From Tyzzerella sp. UBA1042 (GTDB lineage: Bacteria > Bacillota > Clostridia > Lachnospirales > Anaerotignaceae): a DNA stretch of 64,000 nucleotides. Both the position numbers and the translations under genes were made by a program. A model generated the notes under the pieces. That model was given only the letters and a program-made list of their open reading frames with translations. It ran no database searches and was not told where the DNA came from. This document shows positions 13,065-54,488 of this stretch, in pieces (the first letter of the stretch is position 1; each line of letters begins with the position of its first letter). The stretch is taken from NCBI GenBank assembly GCA_002316675.1, contig DCDZ01000028.1, positions 3,002 to 67,001 of the forward strand. Direction: 5' to 3'.

Positions 13065-13124
13065 TTAATCCTTTAAAGCGTTGTTGAGCTTTTTTAAAGC
13101 TTTTTTTTCTATGCGTGATACGTA
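13065..13124 (-). CDS. sigK: sigK 3' segment: end of the region 4.2 recognition helix plus C-terminal tail
   Basis: The minus strand reads (Y)VSRIEKKALKKLNNALKD-stop. This is exactly the sequence missing after ...GISRSY in the sigK 5' segment at 47677-48318. It has no start codon of its own. A CAGGGC-AAA-GCCCTG hairpin (13050-13064) follows the stop. Confidence 0.8.
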   Translation of the reverse strand, partial: YVSRIEKKALKKLNNALKD

Positions 13125-13342
13125 CTCTCCTGAGAGAGAAGGGGTAAATGTATCAGCCTTACTTATTTTGCTGGCAAAATATGTGAAAGGAATGAATTTT
13201 TTGTAAAATTTTGATAAATCCTGTGCAATTGTATGCTTTTCTTATTGTTTTATGTAATTAAGTTTGTTACAATATTTAAGATGAAAATGTAATCTGCGGT
13301 TCGGACAACATAGAGCTTATAAGTGTGTATTAGAAAAAGAGA

Positions 13343-24120: not shown

Positions 24121-24141
24121 GGTTGAAGGAGAGAAGCGATT

Positions 24142-26062: not shown

Positions 26063-26065
26063 GGG

Positions 26066-26677: not shown

Positions 26678-27231
26678 TCTCCAAGTCTTTTACAAAACGG
26701 GAAAAGGTTTTGCTTGTCATTTTAATTGTTATTTTGCTTTCTGCGGTGTATTATTTTGCCGTGGCACGCCCTTCCATGAACCGTATTTCCGTAGCAGGCG
26801 ACCAAACAATGGCATTGCAGGATGAAATTACACTGGAAATGGCAAAGCTTACGAAAATAAAAGAGATGCAGGCAAAAATTGAAGAGGCAGCCTTAACGGA
26901 GCGCTTTAAAACCAGTATTCCCGATTACGATAATTTGGAAAATGTGATGAAGCAGTTGGATACAGTTTTAAGCAGCTCCACAGACTATAAGCTTTCGTTT
27001 TCACCAACCACGGAGGAAAGCGGCTTGCTTTATCGGCCCATTGATGTGGAGTTTGACTGTGCAAATTATGGGACTGCCCGAAGCATTATAGATAAAATTT
27101 ATGCCAGTCCGTTTAAAAGCATGATTGATACCCTCAGTGTGGATAATACGGAATATAAGGAAACGGATATTACCACTTCTCCCGTAAAGGTTACCATGAC
27201 GGTAATTTTTATCGAAAAGAAGACAAGCTAG
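26674..27231 (+). CDS. PilO-like bitopic pilus alignment protein
   Basis: One TM segment ([19 protein letters not shown]) plus a coiled coil. The start overlaps the previous stop. Assigned by architecture and position only. Confidence 0.5.
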
Positions 27232-28751: not shown

Positions 28752-28766
28752 GAAGGAGTGTATAGG

Positions 28767-29570: not shown

Positions 29571-29591
29571 CCGAAGGGAGATGGGCGAAGT

Positions 29592-35345: not shown

Positions 35346-35728
35346 TTGATTATAGAAATTGTTAATTTAGGATATTTTTAGATTTGTTTACATTAAAATT
35401 TTGATGTTAATTTGCAAAATTTCATTATGATAGATAAGGAATTCGGAAAAAACTAATAATAAAATTCAATTGTCAGCACTATATTTTTACTTAATTATTT
35501 GTCTGACAATATAAAGAAAAAGCTTAATTGCATAGAATTTGTGAAAAAAAATACTGAATTGTGTGAATGAAAACTCAAGGTACTAAGCTTATTGCTATGC
35601 TTTATAATAAAACATAGTGCGAAATAAGTGTAAACATAATAACCATATAACATTATCTGGAAAGGGGGATGTGAATTTAAGGAAAAGTCAAATAAATGTC
35701 TATTTACTAACAAGGAAGGTGAGTGTTC

Positions 35729-37087
35729 ATGGACTTATTAATTAAAAATGGTACGATTGTAACAGAAAAAGAAATGTTCCAAGGCGATATTGCAGTAAAA
35801 GATGGAATTATAGCAGAAATTGGAAAAGATCTCTCAGACATTTCTTGTAAAAATGTTGTAGATGCAAAGGGAAAGCTTGTTTTGCCCGGCGCAATTGATG
35901 CACATACACATCTTGCTATGCCTTTTGGTGGAACGGTTTCTGCTGATGGCTATTATGCGGGCACCAGAGCAGCTGCTTGTGGCGGCACTACCACAGTATT
36001 TGATTTTGCTTTGCAGGATTTTGACGAAAGAATGATGGATGTCGTTAGAAGAAGAGATGCTCTTGCTGCACCGGAGGCCGCTGTGGATTATGCTTTTCAT
36101 ATCGGCGTAAAGGATGTTCATTGTGATCTTTTGGATTCCATGAAAGAGGCTGTTGAATTTGGCGTTCCCTCCTTTAAGGTTTTTATGGTTTACGATTTTG
36201 GTGTAACAGACGGTGTATTTTATAGAGTGCTTGAAAAAGCAAAAGAAATTGGTGCACTCATTTGTGTTCATGCGGAAAATAATGAATTAATCAACACCCT
36301 TGTAGAGAGATATATTTCAGAGGGAAAAACAAGCCCTTGGTATCATTATATGTCCCGTCCCGAATTTGTAGAGGCGGAGGCGGATTTCAGAGCAATTTCA
36401 TGGGCAAAATCTCTGGATGCTCCACTTTACATAGTACATTTAGCGAATGAAAAAGGTGTTGAATATGTAGCGAAGGCAAGAGAAGAAGGATATCGCATTT
36501 ATGCGGAAACTTGTCCTCAATATTTGCACTTCACCAGTGATGTTTATAAAAGAGAAGACGGCAGAAATTTTGTTTGTTCTCCTCCTATGAAGGGGCAAAA
36601 AAGTCAGGATGCACTTTGGAAGGCAGTGAAACAGGGTATCATCGATACGATTGCCACAGACCATTGCCCATTCCAACAGTCTGAAAAAGATTGGGGCAAG
36701 GATGATTTTAGAAAAATTCCCAATGGCTGTGCAGGCGTGGAAAATATGTATCCTTATATGCTTGACAAGGCAAACAAAGGAGACATAACTTTTATGAAAG
36801 CTGTTGAAATATGCTCCTCCAATCCGGCACGGATTTTTGGATGTACACAAAAAGGCAGTTTAACGGTAGGCAAGGATGCGGATATTGTTATTTATGATAC
36901 AGAAAAAGATTTTACAATCAAATGCGAAAATATGCATTCTGATTATGACCATACAATTTGGGAAGGAACAAAACTTCATGGCTATCCTGTGAAAACCTTC
37001 TCAAGAGGACGCCTTGTTTATGATGAAGGTGAATTTAAGGGCGAACCCGGATGGGGCAAGTTGATCAAAAGAAGGTTGAGCGAATAA
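35729..37087 (+). CDS. dihydropyrimidinase / D-hydantoinase
   Basis: MDLLIKNGTIVT...LVLPGAIDAHTHLAMPFGG...GGTTTVFDF, plus VHAEN and ATDHCPF motifs of cyclic amidohydrolases. Confidence 0.9.
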   Translation: MDLLIKNGTIVTEKEMFQGDIAVKDGIIAEIGKDLSDISCKNVVDAKGKLVLPGAIDAHTHLAMPFGGTVSADGYYAGTRAAACGGTTTVFDFALQDFDERMMDVVRRRDALAAPEAAVDYAFHIGVKDVHCDLLDSMKEAVEFGVPSFKVFMVYDFGVTDGVFYRVLEKAKEIGALICVHAENNELINTLVERYISEGKTSPWYHYMSRPEFVEAEADFRAISWAKSLDAPLYIVHLANEKGVEYVAKAREEGYRIYAETCPQYLHFTSDVYKREDGRNFVCSPPMKGQKSQDALWKAVKQGIIDTIATDHCPFQQSEKDWGKDDFRKIPNGCAGVENMYPYMLDKANKGDITFMKAVEICSSNPARIFGCTQKGSLTVGKDADIVIYDTEKDFTIKCENMHSDYDHTIWEGTKLHGYPVKTFSRGRLVYDEGEFKGEPGWGKLIKRRLSE

Positions 37088-37112
37088 AATCTAATAAGAT
37101 GGAGAGGGTTAT

Positions 37113-38711
37113 ATGAGTAAATATACGCAGCAGGAAAAGAACGGGCTTTACGAATTAACGCCGGAAGCTGCTTCCGAACTGAGTAACTCTGAGTATTACA
37201 ATCAGGATTTAGCTCCCACCACGGTAAATGAAAGAACATGGAATGCGGTAAGCATCTGTAACCTTTGGGTAGGTATGTCGATTTGTGTTCCATCCTTGGC
37301 ATTGGCCTCCTCCTTGGTTGCATTGGGCATTTCACCCTTACTTGCAGTTTTTAATGTTATTTTGGGAAACTTGATTGTGTTAATTCCAATTCAGTTAAAT
37401 TCTAAAATCGGAACCAAATATGGCATTCCGTTTCCCATTTTTTCCAGAATGACATTTGGAAATAAGGGAACACAGCTGCCGACATTTTCCCGGTCAATCA
37501 TCGCTTGCGGTTGGACCGCAGTACAAAGCTGGGTTGGCGGCGGTGCGGTTGCTGCTTTAATTGGTGTTGCAATTCCAATGTTTGCTGATCAAAGTATAAA
37601 GGTTTCTCTTCCCGGAAACGACGGTGTTGTTGTAGGACAGTTGATTGGATTCTTCCTGTTTATGCTTTTTGTATTTTTGGTTGCATACAACGGGATTGAA
37701 AAGGTAAAATGGGTTCAAAATATTGGCGGTCCTATTCTGATTATTGTAATTTTAGGCTTGCTGTTATGGTCTTTAAATGCAATTTCAACCTCGGGCCATT
37801 CTATGGCAGATGTATTTGCTGTTGGCAATGATGAGGTACTGATTGAACAAAATGGTGGATTTGCCTTTGTATATATGGCTGGGCTAACGGGTAACATTGC
37901 CTTTTGGGCAACCATGGCTCTCAATATTCCTGACTTCTCAAGATATGCAAAGAGCCAGAAAAGCCAGTTTATGGGTCAGTTGACAGGTATGCCTATTCCT
38001 ATGGCATTATGCGCTTTTGTTGGTGCACTGTTTGCTCAGGCTACAAAATATACAGTTGGCGAAGCTTTATTTGACCCCACAAGTGTTTTCTACTATGTAG
38101 ACAATAAGCTGATGGTTATCATCTGTGCCATAGGTGTAATTATGGCTACCATTACAACTTGTGTTGCGGCCAATGTGGTTGCTCCTGCCAATGGTTTCTC
38201 CAATATTGCACCTAAGAAAATCAGCTATAAGAAGGGTGTAATCATTACTTGCCTTATCGCAACCTTTATCACACAGCCTTGGTGGATTTATGGTTCCGGA
38301 TCCAGCTATATTTTCAATTGGCTGAATAATTATGGAACCATCATTGCGCCGGTTGCCGCAATTTTAATTGCTGACTACTTTATCTGTAAAAAGCAGCTGG
38401 TTGATGTTGCTGGGTTATATCAGGGTGAAGGCGGAAGATATTGGTATAGCGGTGGATGGAACAAAAATGCAATGATTGCATGGGTAGTTTCCTTTATTAT
38501 TCCACTGGTGGGCAATACTGCATTGAAATATCAAGCAGGTTCAGGCTTAAAGCCAAACTTCATACAATTCTTGGCTGCAAATGGGTACGCTGTATCTTTC
38601 ATCATTGCCATTGTTGTTTATGTAGCTTTGATGAAATCCACGGTAGGCAAGGATCACTATGGATTTGTATCAGAAGAAGAGCATGAGAGTTTTACAATGA
38701 ACGGAAATTAA
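37113..38711 (+). CDS. NCS1 family nucleobase (uracil/cytosine/allantoin-type) permease
   Basis: 532 aa with about 12 TM segments. The N-terminal motif NQDLAPTTVNERTWN is typical of NCS1 transporters. Confidence 0.88.
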   Translation: MSKYTQQEKNGLYELTPEAASELSNSEYYNQDLAPTTVNERTWNAVSICNLWVGMSICVPSLALASSLVALGISPLLAVFNVILGNLIVLIPIQLNSKIGTKYGIPFPIFSRMTFGNKGTQLPTFSRSIIACGWTAVQSWVGGGAVAALIGVAIPMFADQSIKVSLPGNDGVVVGQLIGFFLFMLFVFLVAYNGIEKVKWVQNIGGPILIIVILGLLLWSLNAISTSGHSMADVFAVGNDEVLIEQNGGFAFVYMAGLTGNIAFWATMALNIPDFSRYAKSQKSQFMGQLTGMPIPMALCAFVGALFAQATKYTVGEALFDPTSVFYYVDNKLMVIICAIGVIMATITTCVAANVVAPANGFSNIAPKKISYKKGVIITCLIATFITQPWWIYGSGSSYIFNWLNNYGTIIAPVAAILIADYFICKKQLVDVAGLYQGEGGRYWYSGGWNKNAMIAWVVSFIIPLVGNTALKYQAGSGLKPNFIQFLAANGYAVSFIIAIVVYVALMKSTVGKDHYGFVSEEEHESFTMNGN

Positions 38712-38883
38712 AGGCTTTAGAAATTTTGAACGCAATGCTTGTTCATAACGGACAGTGTTTTATAACACATATGTATTGCATTGCGGTGCAATACACTTTG
38801 GACTATCCCCTTGGCGTAAAGCCAAGAATCCAAACGCCCGTTTCATAAAGGTTGAAAAGATAAGTGATAGAAAGAAGGAATGA

Positions 38884-40149
38884 ATGATGTACAGAAGCAG
38901 TTTAAAGAGAACAAGTGAAAAAATCCATACTTTTTCTAAGTTTGGCGATGCCGGCCACGGCGGAATTACAAGATATTCTTTATCCGACGAGGCGAAACAA
39001 GCAAGACAGTACTATGTAGAAAGAATGACGAAAATAGGAGCAACCATCGAAACAGACGATTTTGCCAATATGTATGCCACATTGCCGGGCAGCGATTCCA
39101 ATGCAAAAAGAATTGTTATGGCTTCCCATGCAGACTCTGTTAAAAACGGCGGAAACTATGACGGTATCTTGGGTGTTATCGGTGCCATGGAGGTTTTGGA
39201 AACAGTTGCGGCGGAGAAAATTCCCCATAAGCATCCTTTGACGGCAATGATCTGGACAAATGAGGAGGGGTCTCTTTATCCCCCTGCAATGATGAGCTCC
39301 GGTGTTGTTTGCAATGCGTATTTGCCAAAAGAAATTGCAAAAAATTTCAAGGAAGAAAATATGCTTGCATCTAAGAGTGTTTTAGATAAAGTTTCTACCT
39401 TTGGTGAAGCTTTGGAGAAAAGCGGTTTGAAAGGTGCAAAGGAAAACCGTTTGTCACCCGATAAATACAAAGCAATGTTTGAATTACATATTGAGCAGGG
39501 CCCTATTTTGGAGAATGCCGGCTTAGATGTTGGCGTGGTAACTTGTGTTTTGGGTATGTTTAACACCAGAATAAAATTCTATGGTCAGGCAGCTCATGCA
39601 GGCACATTCCCCATGGAATTCCGCCAAGATGCACTTTTTGCGGCAGCACAGGTACTTTGCTATCTTCATGCAGAAATCGATAAGCTTGGACATCCGGAAT
39701 TGGTATATACTACAGGCGAAATGGTTGTACATCCTTGTGTACATACGGTAATTCCTGATTATGTAGATTTCTCCATTGATGTGCGTCATGAAGATCCGGA
39801 GGTTCTGAAAAAGGTTTACCAGATTGTAAGAAGCCTGGAAGGAAAAGAATGGGCAAAATGCCGTTGTGAAGTTGTGGATCAATGGAATCGTGATACCGTT
39901 TATTTTGACAAGAAGCTAGTAGGTTATGTGAAAGAGGCCGCCGAAGAGTTGCATACCAAGCATCAATATATCAATAGTGGTGCGGGGCATGATGCACAGT
40001 TTGCGGCTTATGTATTACCGACAACCATGATATTTGTATCTTCTGAAAAAGGATTGTCTCATTGTGAACCAGAGCATACAAGTGATGAGGTTTGTAATGA
40101 AGGAATCAGCGTATTGCTGAATGCAGTTTTAAAGTGTGATAAAGAATAG
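38884..40149 (+). CDS. M20-family Zn-dependent amidohydrolase (N-carbamoyl-amino-acid / beta-ureidopropionase type)
   Basis: GGITRYSLSDE..., ASHADSVKNGGNYDGILGV, WTNEEG and HIEQGPILE motifs match the allantoate amidohydrolase / AmaB family. Confidence 0.85.
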   Translation: MMYRSSLKRTSEKIHTFSKFGDAGHGGITRYSLSDEAKQARQYYVERMTKIGATIETDDFANMYATLPGSDSNAKRIVMASHADSVKNGGNYDGILGVIGAMEVLETVAAEKIPHKHPLTAMIWTNEEGSLYPPAMMSSGVVCNAYLPKEIAKNFKEENMLASKSVLDKVSTFGEALEKSGLKGAKENRLSPDKYKAMFELHIEQGPILENAGLDVGVVTCVLGMFNTRIKFYGQAAHAGTFPMEFRQDALFAAAQVLCYLHAEIDKLGHPELVYTTGEMVVHPCVHTVIPDYVDFSIDVRHEDPEVLKKVYQIVRSLEGKEWAKCRCEVVDQWNRDTVYFDKKLVGYVKEAAEELHTKHQYINSGAGHDAQFAAYVLPTTMIFVSSEKGLSHCEPEHTSDEVCNEGISVLLNAVLKCDKE

Positions 40150-40188
40150 TTTTGTGAAAACAGAAAATTTTTATGACTAAGACTGCTG

Positions 40189-40223
40189 GGAGGCGTCTGA
40201 ACTTTGGGACGTCTCCTTCTTTC
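40189..40223 (+). terminator. candidate terminator after the amidohydrolase gene
   Basis: ggaggcgtc (40189-40197) pairs with gacgtctcc (40208-40216) with one mismatch, followed by a T-rich ttctttc. Confidence 0.4.
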
Positions 40224-40430
40224 ATCACATTTTGAATAAGAAACAATGGAAAGAAGGTTGATTTGAAAAGAAAAACGCAATTTGGGGATGAGGAATTTAA
40301 CAAAAAAGTTCTTGTTCATTTCGGCTTCTGAAGATAACAGAGACAAAAATAAGTTTTGGTTTGCCGTAAAAAGGAATCGGTGAAAGTTTAGGTGATACTA
40401 TGCAGATTGATCCTGAACAGATGAGAGGAG

Positions 40431-41717
40431 TTGAAGAATTTGAGTAAAGTAATTAAATCAACATATGTTTCTGAGGCTGTTGATGGCTTTACCCCAAGAA
40501 CCGCTATGGAGGAAGCTTCAAGGTGCTTATTATGCCATGATGCCCCTTGCAGCAAAAGCTGTCCAGCCGGCACAGATCCTGCAAAATTTATTCGCTCTAT
40601 TCGGTTTAGAAATGTTAAGGGTGCGGCGGAAACGATCAGAGAGAACAATGTTTTGGGTGGCAGCTGTGCCAGAGTCTGTCCTTATGATCGGCTTTGTGAA
40701 GAAGCTTGCAGCAGATGCGGCATTGATAAACCCATTGAGATTGGAAAATTACAAAGATTTGCTGTGGAGCAGGAGGAAGCTTTACATATGAATGTACTGC
40801 AGGTTCCCGCTACAAAGAAGGGTGTAAAGGTTGCCTGTGTTGGCTCCGGCCCCGCCTCTCTTGCTTGTGCGGCAATGCTTGCGCAAGAGGGATATGAGGT
40901 TACGATTTATGAAGCTGAGGAAAAGGCCGGCGGCGTTTTAACTTATGGGATTGCCCCCGCCAGATTGCCGCAGTATGTTGTTGATCATGATATTAGTACA
41001 GTGAAAAATTTAGGCGTAAAGTTCATTTTCAATACAAAGATTGGAAAAGATATTTCCATGGAAGCACTGCAAAAAGAATACGGTGCAATATTTATCGGTG
41101 TCGGCTTATGGCAGGAAAAACTTCCGGAAATCCCCGGTGTGGGCCTTCCCGGTGTTCTGGCGGCGGCAGATTTTTTGAAAAAAGCAAGAAAGTCAGGGGG
41201 TTCGTATCATCCCGGTAACAGGGTTGTTGTAATCGGCGGCGGCAACGTTGCTATGGACTGCGCTGTTTCTGCAAAACTATTGGGCGCAGAAAAGGTGGAT
41301 ATTTATTACAGAAGAACCATTGAGGAAGCACCCGCTGATATGGCGGAATTCCAGTATGTGCTGTCTCTGGGTGTTTCCATTACAACTAACTTTGCGCCTG
41401 CTGAGGTGCTTGGCACAGACAAAGTGGAAGCAATGCGCTTTAAAGGCAGAGACGGTGTATCTGAGGCAAAGGTTATGGTGGATACAGTTATTTTTGCAAT
41501 CGGACAAGGTGCAGATGATATGACAGAGTTAGCGCCCTTTGCACTGAATGAAAAAGGTTTAATTAAAGTTGATGATTTCTGCAAAACAAATATTGACGGT
41601 ATTTTTGCAGGTGGTGACGTGGCTTTAGGCGGGAAGACTGTTGTGGAAGCTGTTGCATCGGGTAAAATTGCGGCGGTACATATGATGAATTATCTTGCTA
41701 AGAAAGAGGTGAAGTAA
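40431..41717 (+). CDS. preT: NAD-dependent dihydropyrimidine dehydrogenase subunit PreT-like (glutamate synthase small-subunit fold)
   Basis: [23 protein letters not shown] (Fe-S) then [14 protein letters not shown] and [14 protein letters not shown] dinucleotide folds. TTG start after a GAGAGGAG RBS. Confidence 0.85.
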
Positions 41718-41718
41718 A

Positions 41719-42972
41719 ATGGGGATCAAAAAAGACTTATCTATTGATTATTTAGGTGTGAGATGTGAAAATCCTTTTTTCTTGTCCTCATCTCCTGTAG
41801 GCAGTAATTACGAAATGGTTGCCAAGGCTTTTGAAGCCGGCTGGGGCGGTGTTTTTTACAAGACAATCGGTATTTTCGTTGCGGATGAGTGCTCACCTCG
41901 TTTTGACCATGTGCAAAAAGAAGGGATGCCTTGGCTGGGCTTTAAGAATATGGAGCAGATTTCCGATAAGCCTACGGAAGTCAACTTTGAAAATATGTAT
42001 AAGCTAAAAAAGGCTTATCCCGAAAAAATCATGGTTGCTTCTATTATGGGCTCCAATGAGGAAGAGTGGCGTAAGCTGGCAAAAATGTGTGATGAAGTTG
42101 GTGTGGATTTAATTGAAGGAAACTTCTCTTGTCCTCAGATGACTTCCCATGCTATGGGCTCCGACGTTGGTACAAACCCAGACTTGGTGCGGGCGTATTC
42201 CAAGGCTGTGGCGGAAACCACAAAAATTCCTTTTATCGCAAAAATGACACCGAATATTACAGATATGACCATTCCTGCCATAGCAGCAATTGAAGGCGGC
42301 GCAAAGGGCATTTCTGCAATCAATACCATTAAATCCATCACAAATATTGACTTGGAAAATATGACGGCGATGCCCGTTGTAAACGGAAAATCCTCCATTT
42401 CCGGCTATTCCGGTGCGGCGGTGAAACCCATTGCCCTGCGCTTTGTGGCACAGCTGCTGCAAAATGAGAAGCTGAAAAATGTGCCTCTTTCCGGCATTGG
42501 CGGTATTGAAACATGGAGAGACTGCTTGGAATTCCTGCTGCTTGGATGCAGAAATCTGCAGGTAACTACATCTGTGATGCAGTATGGTTACAGAGTGGTT
42601 GAAGATATGTCTAATGGTCTGATGCACTGGATGGATGAAAGGGGCTATCATAAGCTGGATGATTTCATCGGATCAGCATTGGGCAACATCATTCCTGCGG
42701 AAGATTTGAACCGTGATTTTAAAATTTTGCCTGACTTTAGCCAGACAAAATGTGTTGGTTGCGGCAGATGCTACATTTCTTGCTACGATGCAGGCCATCA
42801 GGCAATTGATTGGAATGCGGATAAGCGCAGACCGGAATTAAACGAAAAATGCGTTGGCTGCCATCTCTGTCTGAATGTATGTCCTGTTGCAAATTGTATT
42901 ACACCGGGCGAAATCAAATGGAAAGACGGCAGAGAAAAAGTAGGCGTTGCTTTAAAGAAGTCTTATGAATAA
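41719..42972 (+). CDS. preA: dihydropyrimidine dehydrogenase subunit PreA-like (DHOD-fold plus two 4Fe-4S motifs)
   Basis: DHOD/DHPD-like barrel ([29 protein letters not shown]) and C-terminal [11 protein letters not shown] and [12 protein letters not shown] clusters. Confidence 0.9.
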
Positions 42973-43029
42973 TCAGAATAAAAAGTTATAAATCTCTTTT
43001 CCCTCAAACATAAAACATACTTAAGAAGG

Positions 43030-43067
43030 CATCCCGTTTTGCAAAATGCAGACGGGGTGTTTTTTTG
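43030..43067 (+). terminator. candidate terminator after preA
   Basis: An imperfect stem catcccgttttgca...tgcagacggggtg is followed by a T7 run. Confidence 0.5.
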
Positions 43068-43133
43068 CGTTGTCATTGACCATCGGTTCCGAATAGGACG
43101 AGAGCATTTTTTATATAAATAAAAAAGGGGGGG

Positions 43134-43397
43134 ATGGAGGTGCTTGTATTGACGTTAGCCGAATTGGAAGAAATGAAGAAGGTCAATCCGTGGGAAATAG
43201 ACCCGGAGGAGCTAATTGATATTAATGATGTGGTGATTCGTACAGATTTGCCAAGGGAAGAAAGAATTGCCGATTTTATTCAGCAAATCAAAAATCCGTA
43301 CCTGTTTCGCTGCGGAGATTTGGTAGTCAAGGTAGAATTTACCGGAGAGGAAATTACGCTGTCAGATCGGATTCAGCAGTATATGAGGTTGATGTGA
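43134..43397 (+). CDS. small conserved hypothetical protein preceding the recombinase genes
   Basis: 87-aa ORF (LAELEEMKKVNPWEIDPEELIDINDV...NPYLFRCGDLVVKVEF). From memory, proteins of this kind often precede clostridial large serine recombinase genes. Its function is unknown. Confidence 0.6.
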   Translation: MEVLVLTLAELEEMKKVNPWEIDPEELIDINDVVIRTDLPREERIADFIQQIKNPYLFRCGDLVVKVEFTGEEITLSDRIQQYMRLM

Positions 43398-43450
43398 GCA
43401 TTGGAACCGTAGGAAAGTAGAGTACCTTTGTAGCTTTGAGAGGGTTGCGT

Positions 43451-45052
43451 ATGAAAGAAGACAAGGTGTATCGGGCGGGGATTTATCTACGGCTATCCCG
43501 GGAAGATGGGGATAAGGCAGAAAGCAATAGCGTACAGACACAAAGAACGCTGATTCAATCCTTTTTGAAGAAGAAAAAGGATATTTTTGTTGTGAGCGAA
43601 AAAATTGACGATGGTTTTAGCGGTGTAAGCTTTGAACGGCCGGCCTTTCGTGCGCTGATGGAGGAAATCAAAAGGGGTACCATCAATTGCGTGGTGGTAA
43701 AGGACCTTTCCCGTTTTGGCAGAAATTATTTGGAAGCGGGAAGGTATATTGAACAAATTTTCCCCTTTTTGGGTGTTCGTTTCATTGCTGTAAACGACAA
43801 TATCGATACTGCCCAAGATACTGCATATGAAAATTATATGATTGTACCCTTTAAAAATTTGTTAAATGACGCCTATAGTCGGGATATTTCCATAAAGGTG
43901 CGTTCTCAATTGGAGGCACGGCAAAAAAACGGTGAATTTGTGGGAGCCTTTCCTGTTTACGGATACCGCCGTTCTTCGGGAAATAAGCATAGGCTGGTGA
44001 TGGACGCCTCCGCCGCAGATATGGTAAAAAAGATATTTGCAATGCGTATTGGGGGATGGAATAATTTATACATAGCCCGGTATTTAAACCATCTGGGTAT
44101 CCCCTCCCCTGTAGAATATAAGGAAGGCTGTGCTTCAAACTATGCCACACCCTTCAAATTAAACCCCAAGGCAAAATGGTCCCCCGGGACAGTGGATCGG
44201 ATATTAAAAAATGCAATATACACGGGGGATTTGATACAAGGGAAGGAAACAACATTCAGCTATAAACTGAAAAAAAGAGTAAAAAAACCGGAAGAGGCTT
44301 GGATCAAAAGGGTGAATACCCATGAAGCCATTATACCAAGGGAGGACTTTGAAATTGCACAGCAAATTATGCAAAATGATACGAGAACAGCCCCCCAACA
44401 AAAAAGGCTTTATCCGCTGTCCGGGATGCTGAAATGCGGAGACTGCGGCAGTAATATGGTGCGTAAAACCGCAAGGGCCGGCGGAAAGGCCTATACCTAC
44501 TATATATGTGGGACAAATAAAGCAAATAAATGGGAATGCTCCAGCCATAGAATTCGGGAAGCTTTGGCAGAGGAAGCATTGCAGACGTTTTTTCAAAAAC
44601 AGATCACGTTATTTGAGCAATCGGTTCGGCTCCGGGAGAGAGAAATTCAGACAAAAAGAAATGAGAAAGAAGCAATGGAGAAGCTGCTAAATTCTCAGAA
44701 AGAAGAATTGTCTCGTAATAAAGAATTAATCAGATATTTATATGAGGATTTTTGCCGTGGCCTTCTTACTGAAGAGGAATATTTTTCTATGAAATTCGGC
44801 TATGAGGAAATTTGCAGTGCGCTTGCAAAGAGCTTGGAGGCTTTACTGTGCAAAAAAAAGGAGCTAGAAGCAGTGAAAGAGGGCGGTCATGAGAACGCTT
44901 CCGCTAAAAATAACAATGTTCAAATGGAACGCACTGCTGTGGTCGTATTCTTTGAAAAATTGATCGTGCTGGATAGCAAAACAATTCGGGTGATTCCTCG
45001 ATTTCAAGATGAACTCATGCTGTTTGCTAAGAGGAAAGAAGAACTGCGTTGA
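43451..45052 (+). CDS. large serine recombinase 1
   Basis: Catalytic N-domain YRAGIYLRLSREDGD...QTQR, VVKDLSRFGRNYLE, a recombinase domain, a Cys-rich zinc ribbon (CGDCGSNM...YYICG...C) and a coiled-coil tail. Confidence 0.9.
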   Translation: MKEDKVYRAGIYLRLSREDGDKAESNSVQTQRTLIQSFLKKKKDIFVVSEKIDDGFSGVSFERPAFRALMEEIKRGTINCVVVKDLSRFGRNYLEAGRYIEQIFPFLGVRFIAVNDNIDTAQDTAYENYMIVPFKNLLNDAYSRDISIKVRSQLEARQKNGEFVGAFPVYGYRRSSGNKHRLVMDASAADMVKKIFAMRIGGWNNLYIARYLNHLGIPSPVEYKEGCASNYATPFKLNPKAKWSPGTVDRILKNAIYTGDLIQGKETTFSYKLKKRVKKPEEAWIKRVNTHEAIIPREDFEIAQQIMQNDTRTAPQQKRLYPLSGMLKCGDCGSNMVRKTARAGGKAYTYYICGTNKANKWECSSHRIREALAEEALQTFFQKQITLFEQSVRLREREIQTKRNEKEAMEKLLNSQKEELSRNKELIRYLYEDFCRGLLTEEEYFSMKFGYEEICSALAKSLEALLCKKKELEAVKEGGHENASAKNNNVQMERTAVVVFFEKLIVLDSKTIRVIPRFQDELMLFAKRKEELR

Positions 45053-45067
45053 TATTTTTAAGGAGCA

Positions 45068-46051
45068 ATGAATATGGCAAGAAAAAGCAGAAAAATAAAG
45101 CAAGCCCCCCTCCTTGTAAATGAAAATAAAACGAAGTGCTACCGGGCAGGAATTTATGCAAGGATTTCTGTACCAGACGGGGAGTTGGATGGCACTTCGA
45201 TTGCCAATCAAATATGCATCGCAAAAAATTATCTGGACGAACAGAAGGATATGGTTTTAGCCGGGATTTATATCGACCATGGACAAACAGGCACCCATTT
45301 TGAGCGGCCTGCTTTTTTTAGACTTTTGCAGGATATTGAGGAGAAAAAAATAAATTGTATTCTCGTAAAAGATTTTTCTCGTTTTGGCAGAAACTATTTG
45401 GAGGTAGGGGAGTATCTGGAAAATTATTTTCCCCAAAAAAATATAAGATTTATTGCGGTGAACGACCATTTTGACAGCGTTCATAAGAGGAAGCAGGAGG
45501 ATTTGATTGTTTCCTTGAAAGCCATCGTCAACGATAGCTATGCAAAAGATATTTCAAAAAAAGTAAGTACGGCCATTACCGCAAAAAAGAAGGCGGGTAA
45601 ATTTATGAGCAGCAAGCTGCCTTATGGCTACAAACGCTCCGACACAGACAAATATCAGCTGGAAATCGTGGAGGCCCAGGCGGTAGTGGTAAGAAAAATA
45701 TATGAGCTGTACTTGGAAGGCTTTAGCGGGGCTGCCATTGCACGACGGCTGAATGATATGGGTGTGCCGTCGTGGCGGAAGCTGCGTTTTTTAGAAGGGT
45801 ACGGCGATGGCACAGAAAATGCCCTTTGGCATAGTGGGGCAGTCATTGGGATTTTAAGAAATCCGTGCTATTTGGGCTGCCTTGTGGAACGAAAAACGGA
45901 AAAAGTGCTGTATAAAGGCGGACAACTGCGGGCTTTTCCCAGAGAAAGCTGGAATATCATCGAAAATACCCATGAACCCATTATATCGCGGGAAACGTTT
46001 GACCGGGTTCAGTGTCTGTTAATGGGGCGAAATGGGGTGGTGAAAAAATAG
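45068..46051 (+). CDS. serine recombinase 2, short form without zinc-ribbon or coiled-coil
   Basis: YRAGIYARISVPDG..., LVKDFSRFGRNYLE and a recombinase domain. It ends after 327 aa, only 10 nt before the next gene. Confidence 0.8.
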   Translation: MNMARKSRKIKQAPLLVNENKTKCYRAGIYARISVPDGELDGTSIANQICIAKNYLDEQKDMVLAGIYIDHGQTGTHFERPAFFRLLQDIEEKKINCILVKDFSRFGRNYLEVGEYLENYFPQKNIRFIAVNDHFDSVHKRKQEDLIVSLKAIVNDSYAKDISKKVSTAITAKKKAGKFMSSKLPYGYKRSDTDKYQLEIVEAQAVVVRKIYELYLEGFSGAAIARRLNDMGVPSWRKLRFLEGYGDGTENALWHSGAVIGILRNPCYLGCLVERKTEKVLYKGGQLRAFPRESWNIIENTHEPIISRETFDRVQCLLMGRNGVVKK

Positions 46052-46061
46052 GGGGAGTATT

Positions 46062-47630
46062 ATGAAACTTGGTATCTATCTTCGTGTTTCTGATGAGGAT
46101 CTGCAGGGGGAAGAAAGCAATAGCATAGACGGACAAAGGGAAGTGCTGCATGGCTATATTCATAAAACGGAAGCGTTGTCAAAATGTGAGATTTTAGAGT
46201 TTTGCGACGATGGGTATAGTGGCACAAGCTTTCAAAGACCGGCGGTGCAGGCTCTGCTGCAAAAAGCCCGGGCGGGAGAAATTCATTGCATACTGGTGAA
46301 GGATTTCTCTCGTTTTGGCCGAAACTATATCGAGGTTGGAACATATGTGGAACAGCTTTTTCCAAATCTTGGTGTGCGCTTTATTTCCGTAAATGAACAT
46401 TTTGACAGCGGTGCATCCCAAGGGGAAGATACCTTCATAAGCACTGCATTTCAAAACCTTGTGTATGATCTTTACAGCAGAGATTTGTCACAAAAAATTA
46501 TCAGTGCGAAACGGGCTGCCGCCGGAGCCGGAAAGTTTGTCACAGCGTTTGCACCCTATGGCTATCGTAAAGATAAGGGACAGAGACTTTTCATTGATGA
46601 AGAGGCGGCCTTTGTGGTGAGAAGGATTTTTGCTGCAGCGGCCCAAGATGTATCCAAAACCGAAATTGCGGAAATGCTGAATCGTGAGAGGGTTCCCAGC
46701 CCCTTATGCCTTCGCAAGATGCGGGGGGAGCCTTTTCCTTCCTCCTTTGGGGGAAGAACCTATTTCTGGAACGCAGTCGCCATAAGCCGTATTTTAAAGG
46801 ACAGAAGATATGTGGGGGATGGGGTATACGGAAAAACACGAAGAACAGCCGTGGGCAGTATCGTAGAAGAAAAGGTGCCCAAAGAGGAATGGCTCCTTGT
46901 GCCCCACGCCCAGGAAGCCATTGTAAGCCGGGATATTTTTGAGGCGGTCAATGCCCAGTGTAAGACATACCGGAGGAGAAGAAAAACAGAAAGATATCCC
47001 CTTTCAAAAAAGGTGCACTGTGGTGTATGCAAGGGTAGAATACCCGGGAAAAGTGTAAGAGCAAAAAATGGAGAGGATGTAAGGGTTTTTTATCAATGCA
47101 GTACCTTGGCTTGTTCAAAAACCTGCGGCTGTTATGGGGGAAAATTTGAGGAAATGCAGCTTTCCAATATGATTTTAAGTGTTTTGAATCATTTTTCTAT
47201 CATTGCAGAGGGGAACCGCTGGAAAATAGAAAAGAAAAGGCAGGTGCAAACAGAAATAAACGGTATACAGGAATTTTTTATACAGCAGGAAAAGTTGCAA
47301 AAAAATCTTAACGTGACCATGCTCCGATTGTATGAAAGGTACCGAGAGAATGGGCTGAATGAAAAAACATTTTTAGAAAAAAAACGGAAAATACTGCATT
47401 TGACGGAAAAAAGCAAAGAAGAGATGGAAGAAAAGAAAAAAAGACTACATTTGCTATATGCAAATTTCAATAAAGAGTCTTACGAAGAGAACCAAAACTC
47501 TTTCTCTGCTTTCACAAGGAAGGAGGCAGAAAATTTTATTGATGCTGTGGTCATTGAGCAAGATGGTTCCATAAAAGTGATAGTTCCGTTTCGGGATGTT
47601 TTCACCAAACAGGGAGAGGCCCAGGAATAA
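46062..47630 (+). CDS. large serine recombinase 3
   Basis: MKLGIYLRVSDEDL...IDGQREV, LVKDFSRFGRNYIE, a recombinase domain, a Cys-rich motif (CGVCKGR...YQCS...C) and a coiled-coil tail. Its stop lies 47 nt from the shared GTA core at the right junction (about 49 nt from the element's right end). Confidence 0.9.
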   Translation: MKLGIYLRVSDEDLQGEESNSIDGQREVLHGYIHKTEALSKCEILEFCDDGYSGTSFQRPAVQALLQKARAGEIHCILVKDFSRFGRNYIEVGTYVEQLFPNLGVRFISVNEHFDSGASQGEDTFISTAFQNLVYDLYSRDLSQKIISAKRAAAGAGKFVTAFAPYGYRKDKGQRLFIDEEAAFVVRRIFAAAAQDVSKTEIAEMLNRERVPSPLCLRKMRGEPFPSSFGGRTYFWNAVAISRILKDRRYVGDGVYGKTRRTAVGSIVEEKVPKEEWLLVPHAQEAIVSRDIFEAVNAQCKTYRRRRKTERYPLSKKVHCGVCKGRIPGKSVRAKNGEDVRVFYQCSTLACSKTCGCYGGKFEEMQLSNMILSVLNHFSIIAEGNRWKIEKKRQVQTEINGIQEFFIQQEKLQKNLNVTMLRLYERYRENGLNEKTFLEKKRKILHLTEKSKEEMEEKKKRLHLLYANFNKESYEENQNSFSAFTRKEAENFIDAVVIEQDGSIKVIVPFRDVFTKQGEAQE

Positions 47631-47676
47631 AATGTTTGTGGCGATTTTTAAGATTTCGCCCTAAAATCACAGGAGA

Positions 47677-48318
47677 GTATGATCGTGATATTCCTAAGCG
47701 CTCGGCGATTTCTTGCTGTGTCAAAATATCCTGATTGCACAATCCGTATCGAAGGATGATAACTGCCCGTTCTCTGGGTGTGAGGGTACTCTGGATTGCC
47801 GCCATCATCTTTTCCGATTTCATGGAAAAATCAATGGTTTCCACAAAATCCGGTGTGTCGCTGTTGATGATGTCCAGCATGACGATTTCGTTTCCGTCCC
47901 GGTCGGTACCGATGGGTTCGTGCAGTGAAATATCGTTCTGATATTTTTTACCGCTTCTGAGCCACATGAGCAATTCGTTTTGCACACATTTTGCGGCGTA
48001 GGAGACAAGGCGGACGTTTTTATCTGCGTTATACGAATCCACGGCCTTGATTAACCCGATGATGCCGATTGAGATGAGCTCCTCCGGTTCTTTTACGCTG
48101 CTTGAATATTTTTTTGCAATGTGCGCCACCAGCCGCAGATTATGAAGTATCAATTTATCTTTTGCTTCCTTTTTTTCGCTTTCGTTTCCTGACTGATATT
48201 GTTTTAAGTAGTAGGCTTCTTCTTCTTTGGATAATGGTTTTGGAAAAGCACCGGAAGAAGAAAAGCCAAATAAGAAAGGCAAAGCGGCGAAGAGAAGGAA
48301 CACACATACACCCCCCAA
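47677..48318 (-). CDS. sigK: sigK 5' segment: pro-sequence and regions 1.2 to 4.2, up to GISRSY
   Basis: ...FGFSSSGAFPKPLSKEEE matches the pro-sigma-K AFPxPLS processing region. HNLRLVAHIAKKY, DLISIGIIGLIKAVDSY, YAAKCVQNELLM and TQQEIAERLGISRSY follow. The track ORF then continues for 24 non-sigma codons (SPVILGRNL...) into the element. The start is TTG 48318 or an in-frame GTG 48303. Confidence 0.85.
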
Positions 48319-50912: not shown

Positions 50913-51932
<1,020 letters not shown>

Positions 51933-51972
51933 CCGTTTTTTTCATACTGAAAAGTGTAGTGTGATAAAAGTG

Positions 51973-52008
51973 CCCCTTCTGTTTTTAAGAAAGAAGGGGT
52001 ATTTTTTT
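51973..52008 (+). terminator. rho-independent terminator after gap paralog 1
   Basis: ccccttct (51973-51980) pairs with agaagggg (51992-51999), followed by a T7 run. Confidence 0.6.
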
Positions 52009-52177
52009 GAGTTTTAAAGATGAGCGGCTTCCCTAACTGCGAAAATGAATCCGCTATTTTATTTGCAAAGCGAGGATGGAAAATCCTTTGGCGCAGAAGA
52101 AAATCAATGAAAAAACGTAGGATTTTCCTGTTTTATGGCTGTTGGTGAAAATGCTTTCAAAGGGAAAATATAATATA

Positions 52178-52237
52178 GGACAAAAAACGTCCCGCAAATT
52201 TATGCAATAATTAAGAATAGGACGAAAAACGTCCCAC
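52178..52237. promoter_or_regulatory. two GGAC-N7-GTCC repeats, candidate CggR/SorC-type operator
   Basis: ggacaaaaaacgtcccgc (52178-52195) and ggacgaaaaacgtcccac (52220-52237) are 42 bp apart. On the opposite strand they read GCGGGACGTTTTTTGTCC and GTGGGACGTTTTTCGTCC. Confidence 0.35.
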
Positions 52238-52396
52238 GGAAGTATCAAGAATTCATAAACTTAAAAACACAAAGAGTTGAGAATCTGGTTAGAGTTCTGA
52301 ATTTTACTTTTTTGTCCAATTCCGAATTTTTTTGGGCGTAAGTATGCTACAATATTCTTTGCAGGATAGTTTTCAAACGATGAGAGGGGATACACT

Positions 52397-53416
52397 ATGG
52401 CAATAAAAGTTGGTATCAATGGTTTTGGTCGTATCGGCAGAGTGGTTTTCAGAGTTTTAATGAACCGTCAGGATGAATTTGAGCTTTGTGGCATTAATCT
52501 AAGAAATGCCGAATTAGACTATATGGTTTATCAGTTAAAATACGATAGTGTTTTTGGGCGTTTCAATGGCGAAATTGAGGTTGGCGAAAATTGTATTATT
52601 GCCAATGGCAAAAAAATTCGTGTTTTTAGTGAAAGCGATGCAGGCTTAATTCAATGGGCAGAATGCGGTGCTGAATATATCATTGAATCTACAGGTGCCT
52701 TTAATACTGTTTTAAAGGCTGGATTACATAAAATTGGCGGTGCAAAAAAAGTCATTCTCACCGCACCCTCCAAGGATGATGTGATGCCCACGTTTGTTAT
52801 GGGTGTAAATCATATGGAATATAAAAAAGAGCAAGATATTGTATCCAATGCATCTTGTACAACAAATTGTCTGGCACCCCTGGTGAAGGTTGTGCATGAT
52901 AACTTTGGAATTGTGCAGGGCTTAATGTCTACCATTCATTCCGCAACGGCAAAGCAGAAGGCTGTGGATGCCAGAGCAGGGAGAGACTGGAGGACAGGAC
53001 GCTCGGTGTTTAATAACATTATTCCCTCTACAACAGGGGCTGCAAAGGCTGTTGGCCGGGTTATTCCCGAATTGCAGGGGAAAATGACGGGGATGTCCTT
53101 CCGCGTGCCCACAAATGATGTTTCTGTTGTAGATTTAACAGTACGCTTAAAAAATCCTACCACTTATGAAAAAATATGTGAAAAGGTGAAAGAGGCTTCC
53201 GAAACCTCTATGAAGGGCATTATCAGCTATATGAACGATGATATTGTATCCTCTGACCTTTTGGGAGACCCCAATACCTGTATTTTTGATGAAAAGGCAG
53301 GAATTATATTAGACGACAACTTTGTAAAATTAATTGCTTGGTATGACAATGAGTGGGGCTATAGCAATAAGGTTGTTGACTTAATTGCACATATGTATCA
53401 GGTAGATAATGCATAA
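52397..53416 (+). CDS. type I glyceraldehyde-3-phosphate dehydrogenase (paralog 2)
   Basis: [27 protein letters not shown] and WYDNEWGYS. It is clearly diverged from paralog 1. Confidence 0.9.
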   Translation: MAIKVGINGFGRIGRVVFRVLMNRQDEFELCGINLRNAELDYMVYQLKYDSVFGRFNGEIEVGENCIIANGKKIRVFSESDAGLIQWAECGAEYIIESTGAFNTVLKAGLHKIGGAKKVILTAPSKDDVMPTFVMGVNHMEYKKEQDIVSNASCTTNCLAPLVKVVHDNFGIVQGLMSTIHSATAKQKAVDARAGRDWRTGRSVFNNIIPSTTGAAKAVGRVIPELQGKMTGMSFRVPTNDVSVVDLTVRLKNPTTYEKICEKVKEASETSMKGIISYMNDDIVSSDLLGDPNTCIFDEKAGIILDDNFVKLIAWYDNEWGYSNKVVDLIAHMYQVDNA

Positions 53417-53583
53417 GCAAAGGGTTTCCTGAGTATTTGTAAACTATTTGTTTAAGATATTAAACCTCTGTTATGACAATCATTCGTTTAGTATGATAAG
53501 CATGGTATATGACTAAAAATCTAGTATGACAATGAAAACTCCTTTCTTTTACTTGAAATAAATAAGAGAAAGGAATTTTTTTG

Positions 53584-54488
53584 ATGAAGATAAGAACTAT
53601 TGCAGATGAATATTTATTTGAATGCGAATACAAAAAATTCGCTCCAAGAACACTAAGAATTTATAGGCAGCATATTAATTTTTTACTTGATTTCTTAGAG
53701 CAAAAAGGAATTACAGAAATTGAAGATGTAAAACCCCTACACTTAAAACAATACCTAATGGCAAAACAGAAAGCAAAAAATAAACCAAATTATATTAACG
53801 GCATTTTAAGTACCTATAAGACTATGTTCCGCTATTTTTATAATGAAGGATATACAGATAAAATATTAACGCAAGATGTAGGAAATGTAAGAAAAGAAAA
53901 AGTTATTATTAGAACTTTTACCAAAGAGAACATAAAAAAATGCTTGAATACTATAATGACAGGACTTTTTTAGATGTTAGAAATAAAACTATCATTGCAA
54001 TGTTTTTTGATACTGGAATAAGGTTATCTGAATTAATAAATTTAAAAGAGGATGATATTAAAGAGGATTATTTACTTATCAAATGTGGTAAGGGTAGCAA
54101 AGATAGAGTTGTTCCTAAAAGCCCATTTCTTGCAAAGCATATCTTTAAATATCAAGTAATTAGGGAAGAGCGTTTTGTGGACAGAAATTTAATTGATAAA
54201 AATTTTTTTCTGAGTAAGAATTGTCGCACACTTTCCCGAGAAATGGTTGAAAGAATTGTAAAAGATGCAGGAGAATTTGCAAATGTATCAAAAGATATAA
54301 GAATCTCCCCTCATACTTGCAGACATACTTTTGCCCATATGCAGCTTATGAATGGATTGGATATATATTCCCTTAGTAGATTAATGGGACATGAAAATGT
54401 TTCAATCACACAAATATATCTGAATGGCATTAAAGACGATGATGTTATTTGTCAGAGTAAGAAAACAAGTGTACTGATGAATTTATAA
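53584..54488 (+). pseudogene. tyrosine recombinase (phage integrase family) split by a 1-nt frameshift in an A7 run
   Basis: ORF 53581-53973 has the N-terminal SAM-like domain. ORF 53940-54488 has the catalytic domain (GIRLSEL..., SPHTCRHTFA, LMGHENVSITQIY). The frames join if A7 at 53934-53940 is read as A8, giving ...TKENIKKMLEYYND. Confidence 0.8.

Follow-up and report, generated by a model that had tools for sequence, protein, structure and literature searches.

Large serine recombinases (LSRs) rank among the major tools of genome engineering; how they work is understood for homo-tetramers that act on quasi-palindromic sites. Bioinformatic work has already described triplets of LSR genes in ICEs of Streptococcus (Ambroset et al. 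2016, PMC4701971; also PMC5053989, PMC13089153). Among the skin systems are that of B. subtilis, with SpoIVCA, and skinCd of C. difficile, with CD1231 and the directionality factor CD1234 (PMC5025042). Bacillus cereus ATCC 10987 carries the gin element in its gerE gene (Abe et al. 2017, PMC5595907); of the three LSR genes of gin, GirC alone, together with the 42-aa protein GirX, is required (PMC5595907). In the searchable literature we found no functional dissection of the Streptococcus triplets or of cassettes of the type described below: a common natural cassette of three, sometimes four, co-evolving paralogs has been noted before and never dissected.

We analyzed a 64-kb stretch of DNA (the window) from an Anaerotignum-like clostridium, in which three LSR genes led by a small gene, DUF6870, stand at one end of a segment that splits sigK. 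We hold with even confidence that this cassette is the integration/excision module of a 34.6-kb skin-like sigK-intervening element and that its three paralogs act together.

Organization of the cassette

The preliminary description had placed a small open reading frame and three recombinase genes at 43134-47630, with gaps of 10-15 nt between the recombinases. All of this was confirmed: the four frames are on the + strand, the recombinase genes are 15 and 10 nt apart, and the catalytic Ser motifs and the SRFGRNY(L/I)E motif that it quoted were both found in the recombinases. Likely starts (TTG 43149, ATG 43451 and ATG 45074) were set from ribosome-binding sites, gene calls and homolog alignment. 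The features are as follows.

43030..43066, + strand: terminator-like hairpin and T-run that closes the upstream pyrimidine-catabolism operon
43089..43120, + strand: block upstream of DUF6870 (CCGAATAGGACGAGAGCATTTTTTATATAAAT), kept in three sister loci
43149..43397, + strand: DUF6870 gene, 82 aa from TTG 43149 (reading frame opens at 43134, 87 aa)
43451..45052, + strand: Rec1, position-1 LSR, 533 aa, full length with zinc ribbon (frame opens at 43436, 538 aa)
45074..46051, + strand: Rec2, position-2 LSR, 325 aa (frame opens at 45068, 327 aa)
46062..47630, + strand: Rec3, position-3 LSR, 522 aa, full length with zinc ribbon and coiled coil

With three adjacent LSR genes that point the same way, the element end (43436-47630) has the layout of an LSR triplet. 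The Rec3 gene ends 48 bp from the attR crossover, and the cassette occupies the right extremity of a 34,555-bp segment. On its other side its neighbor is the pyrimidine-catabolism operon. The hairpin region between them (43021-43075) has a predicted RNA fold of -24.5 kcal/mol and is kept in sister locus L083. Because of this upstream terminator, the stop-to-start gaps of 10-21 nt in the cassette and the ribosome-binding site before each gene, a single transcription unit of four genes is the best explanation of the sequence. No sigma-70-type promoter was predicted at 42900-43133, upstream of DUF6870; the conserved block at 43089..43120 is a candidate promoter of a non-sigma-70 type. An ATA-N16-TATATAAA arrangement upstream of DUF6870 loosely resembles a sigma-E promoter; we do not claim it as one.

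The catalytic domain (PF00239) was matched in Rec1, Rec2 and Rec3, and in each the Recombinase domain (PF07508, 60-86 bits) follows helix E. Pfam added a Zn_ribbon_recom match (PF13408) to the Resolvase and Recombinase domains of Rec1, found nothing beyond these two in Rec2, and overlooked the zinc ribbon of Rec3. The four zinc-ribbon Cys of Rec3 are conserved in 100% of position-3 orthologs, and in its AlphaFold model residues 318-344 form the zinc-ribbon strands, while 364-428 and 434-471 make up a long antiparallel coiled coil. Rec3 is the most divergent of the three; its residues 6-462 can be aligned to the SPbeta integrase (9dxh). Hence the earlier claim that Rec1 and Rec3 keep the zinc ribbon stands, for Rec1 by PF13408 and for Rec3 by the Cys4 set and the model with its coiled coil. 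Rec2 lacks the zinc-ribbon and coiled-coil region typical of LSRs; it stops directly after the Recombinase domain, and no residual C-terminal coding sequence lies downstream. The closest solved catalytic domain is that of TnpX (2mhc; E 2e-26 for Rec1, and 2e-24). NCBIfam Ccr models gave 41-94 bits against cut-offs of 700-900 (CcrB best, 94 against 900), so the three proteins are not members of the Ccr family; the XisF model reached at best 102 bits against a cut-off of 375.

What is the small leading gene? It encodes DUF6870 (Pfam PF21757, 98 bits against a cut-off of 24), with an invariant QIKNPY motif in the homolog alignment and a confident predicted fold (AlphaFold pLDDT 82.6). A fold search against PDB and BFVD returned nothing below E = 1, profile searches against PHROGs and NCBIfam gave zero matches, and neither kind of search showed similarity to known directionality factors; our literature search found no paper naming DUF6870. 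The preliminary description had taken this frame to be conserved, which it is: DUF6870 is the companion gene of LSR triplets across loci. Its tight genomic linkage prompts the guess, made earlier as well, that it is a directionality factor. DUF6870 also sits before single position-1-like LSRs, so one such LSR can presumably act alone. We infer that DUF6870 assists the position-1-type recombinase as an accessory factor, with directionality control as the leading guess.

The split sigK gene and the element ends

The sigK gene lies in two co-oriented pieces, one at each end of the element.

13065..13124, - strand: sigK 3' segment, a Tyr codon, then VSRIEKKALKKLNNALKD, then stop
13100..13148, no strand: attL, with the sigK half-site, the crossover TA at 13123-13124 and element arm P' (TACTCTCCTGAGAGAGAAGGGGTAAA)
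47655..47700, no strand: attR, with element arm P (TTTCGCCCTAAAATCACAGGAGAG), the crossover TA at 47678-47679 and the sigK half-site
47678..48318, - strand: sigK 5' segment, ending ...GISRSY

From the attL TA to the attR TA the intervening segment measures 34,555 bp. The uninterrupted frame of the 5' segment continues into the element down to 47602. Rejoining the pieces yields a 232-aa SigK that spans the whole NCBIfam profile (positions 10-229 of 235), and the SigK subfamily model score rises from 263 to 291 bits on joining (cut-off, 252). The element carries pilus genes and core-looking fermentation genes; conjugation genes are absent. No simple path of one or two inversions leads to the window's gene order from the order found in locus L091 (U32, sigK, pilus cluster).

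The two arms are related to each other. The attL arm is an inverted copy of the attR arm at 17/24 positions, with the palindromic TA in the center. The 21-bp arm motif CCCTNNNNTCNCAGGAGAGTA has two copies in the 64 kb, inverted, at 13123-13143 and 47659-47679 with 0 mismatches each; 0.19 would be expected by chance, and two or more matches occurred in 0/100 shuffles. The earlier suggestion of additional nested att sites was not borne out, as the 64-kb window holds the terminal half-sites only. Symmetry of attP was similar elsewhere (17/24 in L090, 16/24 in L091 and 18/24 in L003). Symmetry of attB was at chance level, 5 of 18-19, and the sigK half-sites show no relation to one another. A strong inverted repeat in attP combined with an attB that lacks symmetry makes a hetero-oligomeric recombinase the best reading.

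The runs that hold this sequence are Logan contigs of one fermentation metagenome only, with no RNA run among them. Looking there for traces of excision, we found one contig, in the integrated form, with joints and loose ends absent.

Three orthologous lineages under purifying selection

In Clostridia and Bacilli, other elements too end in the four-gene module, a recurrence that the preliminary description had proposed to survey. Among 80 genome loci retrieved with a Rec2 profile, 33 modules consist of DUF6870 followed by exactly three LSRs, and DUF6870 followed by at least three LSRs occurs in 51 of 80 IMG/VR viral-contig loci found with DUF6870 alone; some viral contigs carry four-LSR cassettes. 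Several small cassette-bearing contigs from viromes (MT837243 and others) are linear fragments that lack terminal repeats, and not demonstrable circles. In a neighbor-joining tree of 102 LSRs from 34 modules, the proteins grouped by gene position: the largest single-position clades held 34/34, 28/34 and 34/34. We conclude that the cassette is an old, widespread family in which each gene position is its own orthologous lineage. The three recombinases are true paralogs, as had been proposed, and each is catalytically intact.

These results bear on whether the triplet is an accretion, that is, the integrases of three independent stacked or nested elements, each with its own att sites. Multi-LSR composite elements are known, such as 023_CTnT of C. 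difficile (PMC6814731), as are SCC composites. However, the only two arm-type half-sites in 64 kb are the element ends, the genes abut, and the order of the three orthologous lineages is repeated in dozens of unrelated genomes. We regard accretion as effectively refuted.

Nine modules target sigK; they form one clade, with a common predicted crossover at the palindromic TA of the Tyr codon (ISRSY|VSR). At least five separate times in this clade, the middle paralog lost its zinc ribbon and coiled coil. Among the other modules, a short middle paralog occurs in 0/51 from viral contigs and 1/29 from non-sigK genome loci (Fisher p = 2e-5).

Selection was measured on an unsaturated pair, L001 versus L088, the latter being the locus of Anaerotignum propionicum DSM 1682. 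The dN/dS ratios were 0.137 for position 1, 0.138 for the 318-aa position 2, 0.201 for position 3 and 0.152 for DUF6870; flanking genes gave 0.01-0.03. All three paralogs therefore evolve under purifying selection, Rec2 as strongly as the full-length position-1 protein. In the module, dN is about 10-fold and synonymous (four-fold-site) divergence 1.5-2-fold that of the neighboring genes. This excess may reflect horizontal replacement, or weak codon constraint with relaxed selection.

We considered Rec2 as a pseudogene and rejected this on its dN/dS, because its open reading frame stays intact across 57-62% identity, and because the truncation is clean, recurrent and placed at a domain boundary. 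Purifying selection and the clean end agree with the original description of Rec2 as naturally truncated, not broken. The catalytic residues (Y, R, the nucleophile S, Q, G, R, D, R and R) are present in 34/34 modules at positions 1 and 2 and in 33/34 aligned sequences at position 3, where the remaining one is an alignment gap. Inactivating substitutions, which the preliminary description had named as evidence against its proposal, were seen in no copy across the 34 modules.

At least four Anaerotignum lineages, cultured A. propionicum included, have the same sigK insertion and the same cargo. Three intact N-terminal halves are kept in all of them, and cargo and flanks are 88-97% identical in protein between lineages; on these comparisons the elements look vertically inherited.

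Could one paralog be enough? Under this alternative, the position-1 or position-3 protein, with or without DUF6870, excises the sigK element, and the other two serve another reaction, such as integration after transfer, use of secondary sites or multimer resolution, or ride along as selfish passengers. The gin element, which needs GirC and GirX only, is a precedent, and girAB would match the extra copies (PMC5595907). DUF6870 accompanies single position-1-like LSRs, a lone LSR in L036 targets sigK a few bases away from the window's site, and in L089, an A. propionicum-like assembly, position 1 is split into 49 + 450 aa. By analogy with gin and from these single LSRs, one might argue against any heteromeric reading, and the positional clustering could come from co-inheritance alone. 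However, unused copies would be expected to decay, yet all three catalytic and Recombinase-domain halves are intact over synonymous divergence of 0.6 to >2 at dN/dS 0.14-0.20, which counts against a single active recombinase. Loss is confined to the position-2 C-terminus, and active sites are never lost. In addition, girA, girB and girC are separate loci with 22-26% identity, not a tandem paralogous triplet. We consider action by one paralog unlikely.

Perhaps Rec2 is instead a non-recombining modulator, whose mixed dimers adjust or inhibit the reaction, for instance by keeping the element from re-integrating or by relieving coiled-coil auto-inhibition so that attL x attR recombination proceeds? 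The region lost at least five times is the one for LSR synapsis and directionality; the loss is specific to the sigK clade, with short forms scarce elsewhere; and an Asp that is conserved at positions 1 and 3 is replaced by N or H at position 2. Against this, the nucleophile Ser and all other catalytic residues are kept in 34/34 position-2 orthologs, needlessly for a pure regulator, and in most modules the position-2 protein retains its full length and an intact Cys4 zinc ribbon. A purely modulating Rec2 is thus improbable, more so than a single sufficient paralog.

Proposed joint action of the paralogs and comparison with known systems

In the joint-action reading, one of the options that the preliminary description had named, the three proteins would combine into a hetero-oligomeric recombinase. 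Both element arms would be bound by a single paralog, probably the one at position 1, which is always full length; each of the others would read a different one of the two dissimilar sigK half-sites, although which reads which is a pure guess. The tetramer would cut within the Tyr codon, at its TA, and in the mother cell would join ISRSY to VSRIEKK, restoring sigK and freeing the 34.6 kb as a circle. Short Rec2 would serve as a working subunit, binding through the Recombinase domain alone. Within the sigK clade this paralog would not need a zinc ribbon and coiled coil, perhaps because the host selects excision and not integration. Heteromeric action has a precedent in CcrA/CcrB on an asymmetric attB (Misiura 2013, as cited in PMC5595907).

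A stronger version, which we put forward tentatively and with less than even confidence, is an obligate hetero-tetramer with one half-site class per paralog, a Rec2 that suffices for excision without ribbon or coil, and DUF6870 as a new type of directionality or assembly factor. If this is true, the family could target fully asymmetric sequences inside conserved genes, protein identity and not the palindromic central dinucleotide TA would set synapsis geometry, and the viral four-LSR cassettes would be the version with an asymmetric attP. If the paralogs split half-sites between them, they would show a route for directing serine recombinases to asymmetric targets. The sigK clade is a natural experiment in which repeated ribbon and coil loss in one subunit shows the parts needed under excision-only selection. 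Since cultured A. propionicum carries the same module, these questions are directly testable.

How does the cassette relate to the systems already described? Like the window, the Streptococcus ICE triplets have three adjacent same-strand LSR genes at one element end that cluster by position (external, middle, internal). Their insertion is likewise site-specific, within a protein-coding gene, and creates a very short duplication, and some members lack a Pfam zinc-ribbon match. In contrast, the window's host is a spore-forming clostridium, its target is sigK, conjugation genes are absent and the middle gene is truncated; DUF6870, which always leads the window-type cassette, goes unmentioned in the Streptococcus papers (PMC4701971, PMC5053989, PMC13089153).

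TnpX of Tn4451 (Clostridium perfringens) has the Resolvase-Recombinase-zinc-ribbon architecture common to Rec1 and Rec3, but it acts alone, whereas the window has three paralogs. CcrA and CcrB of SCCmec are likewise co-transcribed paralogous LSRs, and the pair acts jointly on an asymmetric in-gene chromosomal site; they are two proteins where this cassette has three. The gin element resembles the window in being non-prophage, in interrupting a sporulation gene and in having three serine recombinase genes and a small accessory factor. However, girAB lie apart from girC, with 22-26% identity, whereas the window has a tandem operon of positional orthologs, all under selection.

Finally, in skin elements, as here, an LSR-bearing element splits sigK in direct orientation, precise excision would restore the gene, and a small accessory protein is plausible. 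The window's crossover, at the TA of Tyr in ISRSY|VSR, differs from that of the skin elements. Those elements are prophage-like and have one LSR; the window has three paralogs, DUF6870 and housekeeping-like cargo. The skin-element idea is thereby widened to putatively excised DNA that holds pilus and core-looking fermentation genes in place of prophage remnants.

Recombinase cassette, element ends and cargo

Four open reading frames had been proposed at 43134-47630, and we recovered all of them on one strand with identical coordinates. Profile searches assigned the small ORF to DUF6870 and found Resolvase and Recombinase domains in all three large serine recombinases (LSRs). Likely start codons at 43149, 43451 and 45074 were taken from ribosome-binding sites, gene calls on identical contigs and homolog alignments.

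Features of the cassette and the element ends
43030-43066: strong terminator-like hairpin, upstream of DUF6870
43089-43120: block conserved in sister genomes, upstream of DUF6870
ORF opening at 43134, likely start TTG 43149, + strand: DUF6870 gene (Pfam DUF6870, 98 bits)
likely start ATG 43451, + strand: Rec1 (Pfam Resolvase, Recombinase and Zn_ribbon_recom)
likely start ATG 45074, + strand: Rec2 (Pfam Resolvase and Recombinase only)
ending at 47630, + strand: Rec3 (Pfam Resolvase and Recombinase)
47678-48318, - strand: sigK 5' piece, ending ...GISRSY
13065-13124, - strand: sigK 3' piece, starting VSRIEKKALKKLNNALKD

Given the hairpin and conserved block that precede DUF6870, the four genes look like a single transcription unit; no sigma-70-type site was predicted upstream of DUF6870. 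NCBIfam models for XisF and CcrA/B/C scored far under their cut-offs, and the three recombinases are generic LSRs outside those named families. Their nearest solved structure is the TnpX catalytic domain, and an alignment to the SPbeta integrase covers Rec3 residues 6-462. Pfam missed the zinc ribbon of Rec3, but it is present, as the preliminary description held, since the AlphaFold model (pLDDT 78.6) places zinc-ribbon strands at residues 318-344, followed by a long antiparallel coiled coil (364-471), and all four zinc-binding Cys are kept in position-3 orthologs. Rec2 does lack both regions: it ends a few residues past the Recombinase domain, 10 nt ahead of where Rec3 starts, and the window has no C-terminal remnant behind it.

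Rejoined SigK is 232 aa and covers the whole SigK profile (+27 bits). The 64 kb contains just two copies of the 21-bp arm motif (0.19 expected), inverted relative to each other, one per junction. The symmetry centre is the TA at 13123-13124 and 47678-47679, and the element is 34,555 bp long. No additional arm-like sites were found in the window; hence, the suggestion of nested att sites fails. The interrupted sigK frame runs 25 codons into the element (47602-47677), where it overlaps the 3'-terminal 29 nt of Rec3, which lies on the other strand.

The cargo (13125-43000), which would leave with the element on excision, resembles ordinary chromosome. Phage and conjugation genes are absent from it, its GC content does not stand out, and its between-species divergence matches that of host genes.

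Element cargo
13343-27231: type IV pilus cluster
27597-30695: acyl-CoA dehydrogenase with EtfB/EtfA
31356-32537: family III CoA-transferase
nitroreductase; MerR/GyrI regulator
35723-42972: reductive pyrimidine-catabolism cluster

We compared window 11141-27231 with L091 1-20942 (GCA_028277605.1), a locus holding a distant sigK-triplet element of 11.3 kb. There sigK has the U32 peptidase and the pilus cluster as neighbours outside the element, whereas in the window the pilus cluster lies inside it. This suggests that host genes near sigK may have been captured into the excisable segment in Anaerotignum; we found no simple rearrangement path between the two gene orders. Beyond the element, two tandem glyceraldehyde-3-phosphate dehydrogenase paralogs (50925-53416), kept in sister genomes, lie downstream of spoIIAA-spoIIAB-sigF. 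A tyrosine recombinase gene at 53581-54488 consists of two overlapping ORFs (130 and 182 aa), and its Anaerotignum propionicum counterpart (L088 18614-19519) is a single 301-aa gene. From about 53 kb to its end the window has a low GC content (0.32-0.34), and the split gene lies on the border of that region.

The cassette family and DUF6870

Does this four-gene module recur elsewhere? A profile of Rec2 relatives drew 80 loci from one-genome-per-species contigs, which we mapped by ORF calling and BLAST. Exactly three LSRs followed DUF6870 in 33 modules, with a fourth LSR-like ORF in 5 more; hosts include Lachnospiraceae, Oscillospiraceae, Christensenellales, Defluviitaleaceae and Paenibacillaceae. 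DUF6870 heads 38 of the 45 runs of at least three LSRs, and four of the seven exceptions reach a contig end. In an independent IMG/VR search by DUF6870 alone, at least three LSRs came next in 51 of 80 loci and four in 12 of these. Some IMG/VR cassettes (L145, L149, L152, L156, L159, L167, L170-L172) carry four full-length LSRs, for example of 546, 491, 574 and 540 aa. Directly after several non-sigK triplets (L004, L007, L010, L026, L030, L049, L087) comes a recombinase-like ORF of 107-150 aa, with a further LSR gene behind it, as at Vescimonas pMM35_01 660682-662567 (L087); such elements may be inserted in another element's recombinase gene.

A neighbour-joining tree of 102 LSRs grouped them strictly by gene position, matching the clustering that Ambroset et al. 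(PMC4701971) described in Streptococcus ICEs for their 'triplets of serine integrases'. Accretion, with integrases of independent elements stacked together, is very improbable. Nor did we find the inactivating substitutions that had been considered for some copies: no catalytic column varies at positions 1 and 2, and at position 3 all are kept in 33 of 34 sequences, the remaining one having an alignment gap. Full-length members of all three positions retain the Cys4 zinc ribbon.

For lone LSRs in these loci the position-1 profile gives the top score, and DUF6870 also stands before some of them. From this constant place in front of position-1-type LSRs, DUF6870 is probably an accessory factor of that recombinase. 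A directionality role is a hypothesis. The window's protein has 82 aa, an invariant QIKNPY motif and a confident AlphaFold model (pLDDT 82.6). Searches found no structural neighbours in PDB and BFVD, no match in PHROG and NCBIfam, and no mention in the literature.

The sigK clade and its short middle gene

Nine modules (window, L001, L083, L088, L090, L091, L002, L003, L008) share one target, the TA within the Tyr codon of ISRSY|VSR, and they form one clade in a concatenated tree of positions 1-3. Both orientations relative to sigK occur: the recombinase end adjoins the sigK 5' piece in the Anaerotignum group and the 3' piece in the other five, as the palindromic central dinucleotide and near-symmetric arms would allow. 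In one Paenibacillaceae MAG (L003 1-13487), the 7,081-bp element (DUF6870, three LSRs and about 2.9 kb) is repeated exactly in tandem, and attP is reconstructed at the internal junction between copies; the repeat may reflect either a genuine tandem insertion or a fault of the assembly.

The middle paralog is short in seven lineages (313, 318, 318, 327, 327, 341 and 450 aa) and full length in two (597 and 515 aa). The full-length lineages are interleaved with the short ones, which requires at least five independent truncations. An intermediate state is seen in one Anaerotignum sister, L083, where a 68-aa remnant ORF lies behind the 450-aa product. Among modules that are not in the clade, the middle gene is short in 1 of 29 from genomes and 0 of 51 from viral contigs (Fisher p = 2e-5, modules treated without phylogenetic correction). 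The short gene is not decaying: in the L001-L088 pair, whose dS is not saturated, dN/dS came to 0.138 for short position 2, as against 0.137 at full-length position 1 and 0.201 at position 3. Truncation of the middle gene is convergent and selected in the sigK clade. In L089, position 1 is split (8337-9943; 49 and 450 aa) in an assembly whose Rec2 ortholog is identical to that of A. propionicum; the split gene may be a genuine pseudogene or a product of misassembly.

Across three Anaerotignum sister loci, flanking host genes and adjacent cargo share 87-97% protein identity with the window; DUF6870 shares 64-84%, Rec1 59-63%, Rec2 57-62% and Rec3 47-49%. No protein closer than 49% to Rec3 was found in a 5.8-billion-protein collection. 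Module dN (43134-47630 versus L001, L083 and L088) is about 10 times that of cargo and flanking host genes, four-fold-site (synonymous) divergence is 1.5-2 times that of neighbours, and the fast-diverging stretch has sharp edges near 43089 and 47654. These figures fit either rapid evolution under weaker constraint or replacement of the module.

Site geometry and comparison with known systems

We compared att sites in four elements for which both ends or a tandem junction were available. Element arms agree at 16-18 of 24 positions (common pattern TTTnnCCCT…GAC…GAG-TA), but sigK half-sites agree at 5 of 18-19, which is chance level. Around their centres, the attB sites of single-LSR systems (phiC31, Bxb1) are clearly quasi-palindromic. 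With attP symmetric and attB fully asymmetric, there are three half-site classes, as many as there are paralogs, which would share these classes out among them; the heteromer model builds on this match. We put co-operative heteromeric action of the three recombinases at even odds. Rec2 acting as a modulator is rather unlikely.

That a single recombinase suffices is a weaker possibility than co-operative action, though a better one than the modulator role. It has a precedent in the gin element of Bacillus cereus, where only GirC and the 42-aa GirX, of three LSR genes, are required (PMC5595907); however, the gin LSR genes are dispersed and just 22-26% identical, whereas ours form a tandem cassette. 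CcrAB is a case in which paralogous LSRs can be obligate partners. Treatment of LSR triplets has been descriptive (PMC4701971, PMC5053989, PMC13089153), and we found no functional dissection in the literature searched. Skin elements carry one LSR (PMC5025042), whereas this skin-type element carries three. We conclude that the cassette belongs to a widespread, poorly understood family, for which use by a skin-type element is new.
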